A stretch of 35,663 bases of DNA from a virus, in UHGV virus genome UHGV-0076931. One strand, given 5' to 3'. Under the pieces are notes generated by a model. The model was not told where the DNA came from and made no database searches. It saw nothing but the letters and a program-made list of their open reading frames with translations. This document shows positions 1,812 through 3,138 of the stretch, one piece after another. Both the position numbers and the translations under genes were made by a program. Within the stretch, counting starts at the first letter, position 1. Every line of letters begins with the position of its first letter.

Positions 1812-1895
1812 AGCGACCTCCCTTAACGTGGTGCTGCTACCATTCTAAGTTGTCCCAATTCAGATTCCAACTGACAGCCCTCCCTGAGTGAGGAG

Positions 1896-2966
1896 CTATC
1901 TATAGTCTTCCCATGAGTTTTCATCGACACAAAATTCAATACCAGCATCCAGTCCATTTATGTGCAAATTAAACTCATCATTGATAAACTGGCCTTCGTC
2001 TATTTCAAAGAATAATTCTAGTTCTACTGTAAAATCCTTTTCCTCCTCCTCGTGATTAGATACGGTGTCAAAGGTATAAAATTTTCCATCCTCTTTGTCA
2101 TAATAGCCGTTTGCGGTATCAGGTCCGCTGGCAGTGACATTAAAACTAACAGTAACATCAAAAGTAATTTGACAACTTTCGTCATCCAAATGAATTATTT
2201 TGGGTTCAAATTCGCTTATATTCGTAATTTCAAAGCTATCAATCTCTGAGTCTTCCCATGTTGAAGAATTATAAGCTTCAGCAGTTTCTAATTTTTCCGT
2301 TAATTTTTGTATGATTTCTTCATTTTTGCTTTCTAAAAAACGTTCTATAAATCCAGTTCTTTCGTCATTGTGTTTGTTGTAATCATCTAGTAGTAAGTTT
2401 AGTGCTCCTATAATTATGAAATTATCATTGTCTTCACAGTAACCTTTTAGGTCAGGGTCTTCTGAAACCACATAAATTTTTTCATTATCTCCTAGCGCGG
2501 AACGTATTGCTAAAAGAGTGAAGGCGTCTCGAAATTCGTTAGGTTTTTTCGCACTAAAGGGGCTTTTTTTATCAAAGTACATGTCTATAACTTCATTGAG
2601 GTCCACCTTCGACATATCTACAATAGTTGTGTTTGAGTCCTCCATGAAACCATTAAATGCGCTTAATGCCTTTTCTTGAATGTCTGTTTCATTAATTTCA
2701 CAAAATAGATTTTTAATATTGTCATCTTCATATTCTTTGAGGATAACAGCCTTTCGTCGGAAATTGTTAATCCCTTTCAATGCTTCTTGTATATGCTCGA
2801 TGATTTTTCGTTCAACTTCTTTAACTACAATTGTTGTAGAAATATGCCTGAACTCATCATTTCTACATAGTTCTTCAAATGATTTTATAGTTTTTGAGTT
2901 GAAGTCCAGGTTTGCTTTTACAAAAAACTCAGTATCAATGAATACATTGCGGGTAACTAGAGACAT
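1896..2966 (-). CDS. Hypothetical cargo protein with PIN-like N-terminal region (356 aa)
   Basis: Strongly AT-rich ORF in an otherwise GC-richer phage; AAAGGAG SD; N-terminal VFIDTEFF and later VVSEDPDL acidic motifs resemble PIN-type nuclease folds; acidic C-terminal half. Confidence 0.7.
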   Translation of the reverse strand: MSLVTRNVFIDTEFFVKANLDFNSKTIKSFEELCRNDEFRHISTTIVVKEVERKIIEHIQEALKGINNFRRKAVILKEYEDDNIKNLFCEINETDIQEKALSAFNGFMEDSNTTIVDMSKVDLNEVIDMYFDKKSPFSAKKPNEFRDAFTLLAIRSALGDNEKIYVVSEDPDLKGYCEDNDNFIIIGALNLLLDDYNKHNDERTGFIERFLESKNEEIIQKLTEKLETAEAYNSSTWEDSEIDSFEITNISEFEPKIIHLDDESCQITFDVTVSFNVTASGPDTANGYYDKEDGKFYTFDTVSNHEEEEKDFTVELELFFEIDEGQFINDEFNLHINGLDAGIEFCVDENSWEDYR

Positions 2967-3138
2967 TTTCCAACTCCTTTTAATATATTAACCCAAATGA
3001 GGTAACATCATAAAAGATCACATAGTCACTTGTATTGGTATCTTGAGTCAAGAGAATATGATGGCGCTTACAATTTTTGTGACAAGGCTAGATGTCAGAC
3101 TGTTAAGTGCTATAAGCGAGTTAATATATTTAAGTTGC

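Follow-up and report, generated by a model that had tools for sequence, protein, structure and literature searches.

A PIN_12 (DUF4935) gene at the D-ogr junction of a P88-like Escherichia coli prophage: a candidate single-protein anti-phage moron related to Cosus

Why does a P2-family prophage of Escherichia coli carry a compositionally foreign gene between the tail gene D and the late-gene activator gene ogr, and what could this gene do? The question arises in the virus genome UHGV-0076931, a stretch of 35,663 nucleotides (nt) that I analysed as a whole (the window; all positions are counted from its first letter). In the open reading frame (ORF) list of this window, a coding sequence of 356 amino acids (aa) occupies positions 1896..2966 on the minus strand (ATG start, stop codon included), and it belongs to the DUF4935/PIN_12 family (Pfam PIN_12, E 1.3e-20). 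I propose that the gene is probably a prophage-borne, single-protein anti-phage moron of this family, with a role in inter-phage competition. The fold, the catalytic residues, the two-domain architecture, purifying selection, the mobility of promoter plus gene, the hotspot placement and the homology to the defence protein Cosus all support a role in defence.

The gene stands out from its surroundings, as the first-pass annotation of the bare sequence had remarked. The GC content of the coding sequence is 0.335 (0.287 at third codon positions), compared with 0.537 in gene D and 0.526 in the whole window, and the profile along the DNA lies at 0.31-0.36 over 1950-3150 versus 0.50-0.56 in both flanks. 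The foreign insertion that this composition had suggested is borne out by related genomes. In most related E. coli prophages (L019 is the example used here) and in phage P88, D and ogr are only 42 nt apart; relative to this empty junction, the entire insert spans 1853..~3126 (~1.3 kb, blastn against L019), and the segment unique to the PIN cassette, delimited by blastn against two loci with alternative cargo (L002, L003), is 1896..3117. The encoded protein is identical to WP_074516378.1 ('PIN domain-containing protein'), an annotation found in 16 complete E. coli genomes, and carriers of the gene include Shiga toxin-producing E. coli of serogroup O145 and murine E. coli isolates. The ratio of nonsynonymous to synonymous substitution rates (dN/dS) is 0.06-0.16 against the orthologues from Serratia, Yersinia and Raoultella, and the gene is therefore under purifying selection.

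What kind of protein is maintained in this way? Residues 8-172 match Pfam PF16289 (PIN_12, formerly DUF4935) over profile positions 1-171 of 172 with 74.9 bits, the gathering cut-off of the model being 32 bits. The N-terminal part, a PIN (VapC-like) nuclease domain with a helical insert, comprises aa 8-197 (2376..2945, minus strand) and carries the acidic residues D11, E50, D147, D170 and D172; its fold is nearest to that of VapC toxins. A search of 5.8 billion proteins returned 109 homologues, nearly all of 354-365 aa, from Enterobacterales, Pseudomonas, Xanthomonas, Aeromonas, Acinetobacter, Achromobacter, Variovorax and one cyanobacterium. Residue conservation was computed across 42 homologues of 38-99% identity, in which the five acidic residues are invariant, as are T12 and S168. 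The two peptides that had been singled out as PIN-like from the letters, VFIDTEFF and VVSEDPDL, are true PIN active-site motifs: the former holds the invariant D11 and T12, the latter S168, D170 and D172. Because the acidic tetrad is invariant both in this clade and in that of Cosus, which is described below, the PIN domain is almost certainly catalytic.

The remainder of the protein had been described as acidic with no recognisable domain. It is indeed acidic (net charge -32, with -30 over the 128 residues of its beta part; the whole protein has a pI of 4.3 and a net charge of -45) and it has no Pfam model. However, it is not domainless: aa 198-356 (1899..2375, minus strand) are predicted with a pLDDT (predicted local distance difference test) of 87 to form two helices and a curved antiparallel beta-sheet of NTF2/cystatin-like shape, and this domain is well conserved. 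Among the same 42 homologues, N233, S235, D283, E292, E315 and G342 are invariant, and W237, D239, G281-P282 and Y289-D290 are near-invariant (at least 90%). A profile of the C-terminal domain matched 235 proteins among 1.84 billion representatives, and in almost all of the matches listed the domain lies at about residues 200-355 of proteins of about 350 aa. Ten of these matches were checked with Pfam and all ten contain PIN_12, two at full length and eight shorter ones that match the profile in its C-terminal part alone, as truncation at the N-terminus would produce; no fusion of the C-terminal domain to an alternative effector was seen among the ten. The domain thus appears to be confined to fusions with PIN_12.

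A sequence-profile search of the PDB gave nothing relevant, and in BFVD a single full-length structural relative was found, a 'PIN like domain' protein encoded on a Siphoviridae contig. The PIN-like nuclease PcrIIC1 of a type II-C CRISPR-Cas9 system (PDB 8wmm_G) shares the fold only, with no sequence relationship; it lacks the C-terminal domain, and the gene in the window lacks a Cas context. The length of 356 aa, the modelled C-terminal domain and the lone position of the gene everywhere examined do fit the published description of DUF4935 as a usually monocistronic family of ~350 aa whose C-terminal region is alpha/beta and of unknown fold (Matelska 2017, PMC5499597).

Is there any member of this family with a demonstrated role? 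Cosus, the product of brc24, is encoded by a single PIN12-domain integron cassette gene and gives complete resistance to T7, whether the multiplicity of infection (MOI) is high or low (bioRxiv 10.1101/2024.07.02.601719). I rebuilt the brc24 ORF from Table S3 and the mutagenic primers, after which the true protein was recovered as P0257, a 382-aa 'DUF4935 domain-containing protein' of Providencia stuartii (PIN_12 E 2.5e-36). A tblastn comparison of the 356-aa protein with the rebuilt brc24, damaged by optical character recognition, had found the EFPDA motif only, and the relationship with Cosus is clear only from the true P0257 and from profile comparison. BLASTP against P0257 finds the PIN domains to be 27% identical (E 5e-13), and hhalign of the window clade (family A1) against the Cosus clade (A3) gives a probability of 99.2% and an E of 8.8e-20 over 288 columns with 24% identity, spanning the first PIN strand, the linker helices and the first strands of the C-terminal domain up to residue 298. 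In this alignment D14, E52, D153 and D177 of Cosus fall on D11, E50, D147 and D170 of the window protein; D96 of Cosus falls on E90, an acidic residue and the commonest one at its position, and T12 of Cosus on F9, a position not conserved between the clades.

By these comparisons the window protein and Cosus are distinct clades of one two-domain family. They share PF16289, the succession of PIN_12, helical linker and beta-rich acidic C-terminal domain, a W-x-D at the first strand of that domain, and the state of a single gene on a mobile element. They differ in length (356 versus 382 aa), none of the 109 search matches belongs to the Cosus clade, and the window gene sits in a prophage slot, bounded by phage sequence and a 7-nt direct repeat, without attC and without an integron. 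The authors of the Cosus study also report homologues without attC (bioRxiv 10.1101/2024.07.02.601719), so attC is not a feature of the Cosus protein family. By analogy with Cosus, I infer that the window clade confers phage resistance, and the first-pass suggestion of a plausible single-gene anti-phage candidate gains support from this homology as well as from the placement in defence hotspots.

How could such a protein work? On the favoured reading, the gene would be a lysogenic-conversion moron in a minor accessory slot, D-ogr, from which its own promoter would drive the protein in the lysogen. The N-terminal VapC-type PIN domain would act as a metal-dependent endonuclease that blocks an infecting phage. 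The substrate is most likely RNA or single-stranded nucleic acid, because of the analogy with VapC and because of fusions in the Cosus clade: some of its members (P0352, P0354, P0357 and P0361, of 462-467 aa) carry an extra C-terminal cold-shock domain (CSD), which hints at binding of RNA or single-stranded DNA and at a single-stranded substrate. The hyper-acidic C-terminal domain would take the place of a separate antitoxin or sensor, by controlling the nuclease and/or recognising a phage component. Since no antitoxin is present, regulation in cis, oligomerisation or the sensing of a trigger would most obviously fall to this domain; for Cosus, a hexamer is predicted. The protection that Cosus gives at high MOI argues against classical abortive infection, at least by analogy.

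Several observations weigh against this defence reading, and some of them come from Cosus itself. Cosus shares no more than 24-27% identity with the window protein, and the C-terminal domains compared alone by hidden Markov model (HMM) show no significant match (E 0.05-0.19). Of 11 Cosus mutants, only T12A, D14A and D96A are reported as weakened; D153A and D177A, which align with D147 and D170, were made and not reported defective, and the sole recovered T7 escape mutation, obtained on the D14A mutant, lies in the tail protein gp12 (bioRxiv 10.1101/2024.07.02.601719). The mechanism may therefore involve more than nuclease catalysis, and there is room for a non-catalytic or dual mode of action. 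The gene is rare at D-ogr (16 of 5426 complete E. coli genomes), it is co-oriented with D and ogr and could be expressed with the late genes, and its putative promoter, TTGACT/GACTAT, is a weak consensus match (8/12) that stays under the threshold of the consensus scan. NCBIfam and PHROGs scans gave no usable match, and the comparison with defence HMM sets that had been advised at the outset came back empty (PADLOC-DB 2.0.0, 0 families at E <= 10). However, Brc24 itself came from a functional screen for systems missed by PADLOC and DefenseFinder (bioRxiv 10.1101/2024.07.02.601719), and because that screen targeted such undetected systems, the empty PADLOC result is not evidence against a role in defence.

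The Cosus mutants also bear on a defence without nuclease activity, in which the PIN-like domain would be a binding scaffold and the protein would block DNA injection or another early step. The gp12 mutation as the only escape mutation recovered and the several acidic-residue mutants with no reported defect would suit this idea, and protection at high MOI fits exclusion at entry. However, the same study found that D14A cuts protection more than 1e5-fold, as do T12A and D96A (bioRxiv 10.1101/2024.07.02.601719), and the invariance of four canonical PIN acidic residues in both clades over wide divergence is hard to explain without catalysis. Moreover, no membrane segment is predicted in the 356-aa protein, which is very acidic and looks soluble. 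I consider a scaffold of this kind quite improbable, and a catalytic defence protein remains the reading that I follow.

Where do orthologues sit in other genomes? Orthologues of 41-79% identity recur as single cargo genes in all the known accessory slots of P2-like phages: gpA-gpQ, S-V, Z/fun and D-ogr. In Serratia (79% identity) the gene is part of a decayed P2-like element, in which gpA fragments flank it on one side and Lamassu on the other, beside portal and terminase remnants; in Raoultella (77%) it follows gpU in a P88-like prophage; in a Citrobacter prophage (70%) and in the isolated Enterobacter phage ENT4 (65%) it is AT-rich, is flanked by gpS and gpV and runs antisense to the tail genes. 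A scan of IMG/VR added 30 viral loci, 26 of them on P2-like contigs. In the gpA-gpQ slot there are seventeen loci, which lie at a distance of 47-64 nt from the portal gene and have identities of 79%, 71% and ~42%; three (L035-37) are in the S-V slot, antisense to the late operon; one is at the Z/fun position, between the tail-fibre genes and the sheath gene; and the D-ogr copies comprise three identical ones and a 63% orthologue (L038) in a phage with the classical T-U-D gene order. PIN_12 is also present in several gpA-gpQ arrangements in Table S5A of Rousset 2022 (PMC9122126), and I found no mention of it in the main text of that paper. Beyond the P2-like phages, a Variovorax relative lies in an island with AbiTii, Mrr and type II CBASS, a Pseudomonas chlororaphis relative near a TIR protein (TIR_2), a Yersinia relative near MazEF, LPD38 and Rpn, an E. 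coli relative in an integrative and conjugative element (ICE) and a Pseudanabaena relative among toxin genes. It is always a lone gene, and no neighbour is conserved across the contexts examined.

These positions also speak to the possibility that the gene is an accessory of the phage's own life cycle, a nuclease co-expressed with the late genes D and ogr in lytic growth. Such a nuclease might attack nucleic acid of the host or of a competitor, act against a host defence or hamper P4-type satellites. The family shows a striking specialisation to the genomes of Peduoviridae, and in the window as in L038, the 63% orthologue, the gene has the same orientation as D and ogr, with no terminator-like site in between. 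I nevertheless regard such an accessory as unlikely: copies in the S-V slot (ENT4, Citrobacter, L035-37) run antisense to the late operon, others lie in ICEs and in chromosomal islands without phage genes, the promoter-like block upstream travels with the gene, and the homologue Cosus protects a host that carries no phage (bioRxiv 10.1101/2024.07.02.601719). Like the P2 'moron' loci (old/tin, Z/fun, orf30; Rousset 2022, PMC9122126; Moura de Sousa 2026, PMC13586616), the gene is AT-rich foreign cargo with its own putative promoter, exchanged among related phages at fixed slots; unlike these classical loci, the D-ogr slot is empty in most relatives and holds one gene only when filled.

DNA homology between the window and the Serratia locus, which is in another P2 slot, extends from 3053, at the TTGACT hexamer, to the stop codon at 1896. 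The 5' region that moves with the gene (2967..3053, minus strand) contains an AAGGAG ribosome-binding site at 2979-2974, seven bases 5' of the ATG, and a sigma-70-like element, TTGACT (3051-3046)-18 nt-GACTAT (3027-3022). This TTGACT-18-GACTAT block is conserved in the Serratia and Raoultella orthologues, both in different slots, and its conserved hexamers point to a putative promoter of the PIN_12 gene. Because the homology runs from 3053 to the stop and the block is kept across slots, the mobile unit looks like a (putative) promoter plus one gene. On the coding strand, the consensus scan found no terminator-like site, and a hairpin after the stop codon was rejected as a terminator since it was no better than shuffled sequence (z -0.93).

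A different motif, GTGCGA(A/T)(A/G)GTA, recurs 25-35 nt 5' of the start codon in several 63-72% orthologues in different slots (L008, L033, L025, L035/L016, L038). It is absent from the copy in the window and could be a regulatory or 5' untranslated region element.

With a PIN fold nearest to VapC toxins, could the gene be a toxin of addiction? As a single-chain toxin-antitoxin it might stabilise the prophage or be merely selfish, with no anti-phage role; the arm of the prophage beside ogr already holds a hok/sok killer module, and expression of brc24 carries an 11% fitness cost in E. coli (bioRxiv 10.1101/2024.07.02.601719). I hunted for an antitoxin in the cassette. The 172 nt between the D stop codon and the ATG contain no coding-strand ORF of more than 7 codons, and neither a further ORF nor an Rfam RNA nor any informative repeat turned up in the cassette. 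Thus, unlike VapC of VapBC, the protein has no VapB antitoxin gene next to it, and it differs further by a long helical insert after strand 2 and a fused 160-aa domain (PMC5499597); membership of the VapBC type II systems is rejected on the lack of an antitoxin gene. With neither an antitoxin ORF nor an antitoxin RNA, a single stable polypeptide offers no obvious route of killing after gene loss, and post-segregational killing would leave the placement in defence hotspots and near Lamassu and CBASS unexplained. The likelihood that I assign to addiction is accordingly slight, and defence against phages stays the preferred function.

How did the gene come to lie at D-ogr? The flanks are present in about 1200 of 5426 complete E. 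coli genomes, with the PIN_12 gene between them in 16, and in an evenly spaced sample of the matches most loci with both flanks span ~615 bp. A minority of D-ogr sites carry one gene at the exact same point: a protein of 340 aa that matches HEPN_RiboL-PSP below threshold (E 1.2e-4) in L002, a 295-aa hypothetical protein in L003, and DUF3800, DUF2971 and ParA-family proteins in L020, L021 and L022, respectively. These five alternative genes are antisense to D and ogr, whereas the PIN_12 gene is co-oriented with them. The cargo of L002 and L003, the two that were scanned, has no PADLOC match; the alternative genes are candidates for further defence genes.

The ends of the insert are conserved. 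A direct repeat, TAAGTTG, is found on the plus strand at 1846..1852, where it was read from the sequence and extends imperfectly to ATTCTAAGTTG (1842-1852), and again at 3131..3137, right before the D stop codon (3139-3141), as seen by blastn and sequence comparison; a conserved right end, GAGTTAATATAT, precedes the right copy. The blastn matches to the single-copy empty site overlap by 12 nt. On the D side, the end motif GAGCTAATAT.T.TAAGTTGCTCA is common to sites with other cargo. On the ogr side, every occupied site examined ends with GTCAGTTGGAAT, a 17-nt variable spacer and TAGAAT. In the window this end coincides with a promoter-like element found by consensus scan just upstream of ogr (1842..1870, minus strand), TTGGAA (1870-1865)-17 nt-TAGAAT (1847-1842). 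The hexamers and the 17-nt spacing are kept across the occupied sites examined, which hold five unrelated cargo types, and the spacer varies; the empty site has TAGAAT only. The occupied ends may thus represent a rebuilt ogr promoter, and the shared ends could act as homology arms for the swapping of cargo. The empty sites might instead have arisen by deletion between the repeats.

The D-ogr slot has the hallmarks of a P2-family hotspot: a variable, compositionally foreign gene at a fixed core position, with alternative cargo in relatives. The junction is not named as a hotspot in the published accounts of P2 accessory loci compared here; possibly it belongs to the 'third hotspot between a tail protein and CI' described in bioRxiv 10.1101/2024.10.15.618418.

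Taken further, these observations allow a conceivable but on balance doubtful extension, in which the protein is a single-chain, toxin-antitoxin-like immune sensor that roams as cargo among Peduoviridae, with D-ogr as a cassette site that rebuilds the ogr promoter at each swap. The hyper-acidic NTF2-like domain would be a nucleic-acid-mimicking lid or bait over the PIN site, which would stay inactive until a nucleic-acid-binding or virion protein of the phage engages the lid. The promoter-plus-gene unit would roam all the accessory slots of Peduoviridae, the D-ogr ends being conserved.

The PIN_12 cassette is not a new kind of system. DUF4935 was classified bioinformatically in 2017 (PMC5499597), its occurrence as P2-hotspot cargo is contained in supplementary data, and one distant member is a validated defence protein. 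What is new is the link of the window clade to Cosus, the evidence that this clade roams through all Peduoviridae accessory slots, and the anatomy of the low-occupancy D-ogr slot. If the defence reading is true, Cosus/DUF4935 defence extends from integron cassettes to a second, divergent clade, one found widely among P2-family prophages of Enterobacterales and also in Pseudomonas islands, and the D-ogr junction joins the list of P2-family defence slots. It would also provide a compact system of 356 aa whose VapC-type nuclease is kept under control in cis and has no antitoxin, as well as a candidate for DefenseFinder and PADLOC models and for explaining differences in phage sensitivity between strains.

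Which phage carries the gene? The window is a complete P2-family prophage beside flk/yfcJ in E. coli, and strain B1172 is 100% identical to the window over the region. The insertion site had been described as a P2 junction; the D-ogr position is right, but the exact label 'P2' is rejected, as the stretch from D to U is 95-97% identical to phage P88 and the carrier is, on this similarity, a P88-like prophage of Xuanwuvirus (Peduoviridae). The genes for sheath, tube, E, T and U lie on the plus strand, divergent from D, which is on the minus strand (3139-9981); the FI-U block is therefore inverted relative to P2, which is the arrangement of P88 and Xuanwuvirus. Downstream of the insert lies ogr, the late-gene activator (1551..1811, minus strand; Pfam Ogr_Delta E 5e-14), and upstream the gpD-like tail/baseplate hub gene (3139..4250, minus strand, start codon approximate; Pfam Phage_GPD E 4e-17 and annotations of related genomes). 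The integrase is at one end of the prophage, and ogr, hok/sok, Com and a DNA methyltransferase are at the other.

Between ogr and this latter end, a hok-type killer gene (1219-1359, minus strand; Pfam HOK_GEF E 3.7e-7) is accompanied by a sok RNA (1349-1506, minus strand; Rfam sok E 5e-7, below the gathering score), and the hok/sok-type module is kept in related prophages and in phage P88. Near flk, a Com-like zinc-ribbon regulator (786-992, minus strand) overlaps an N6/N4 DNA methyltransferase (50-841, minus strand). At this position related prophages have TagO and a zinc-ribbon protein, or a TM2-domain protein, and a second variable slot lies between hok and the attachment site.

The window's own gpA-gpQ (old/tin) hotspot (24111-27675) is filled with a ParM/StbA and StbB partition pair (26323-27598), a small zinc-finger protein of the ClpX type (25927-26259) and three ORFs (24126-24689, 24906-25388, 25616-25930) that have no Pfam or PADLOC match. 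Directly past gpU, a putative 214-aa ORF (10001-10645, plus strand), with no Pfam match, overlaps an 865-aa tail-fibre ORF on the opposite strand. In relatives, the junction after gpU holds a DNA invertase (Citrobacter phage Shae_phiSM) or, in Raoultella, the PIN_12 gene.

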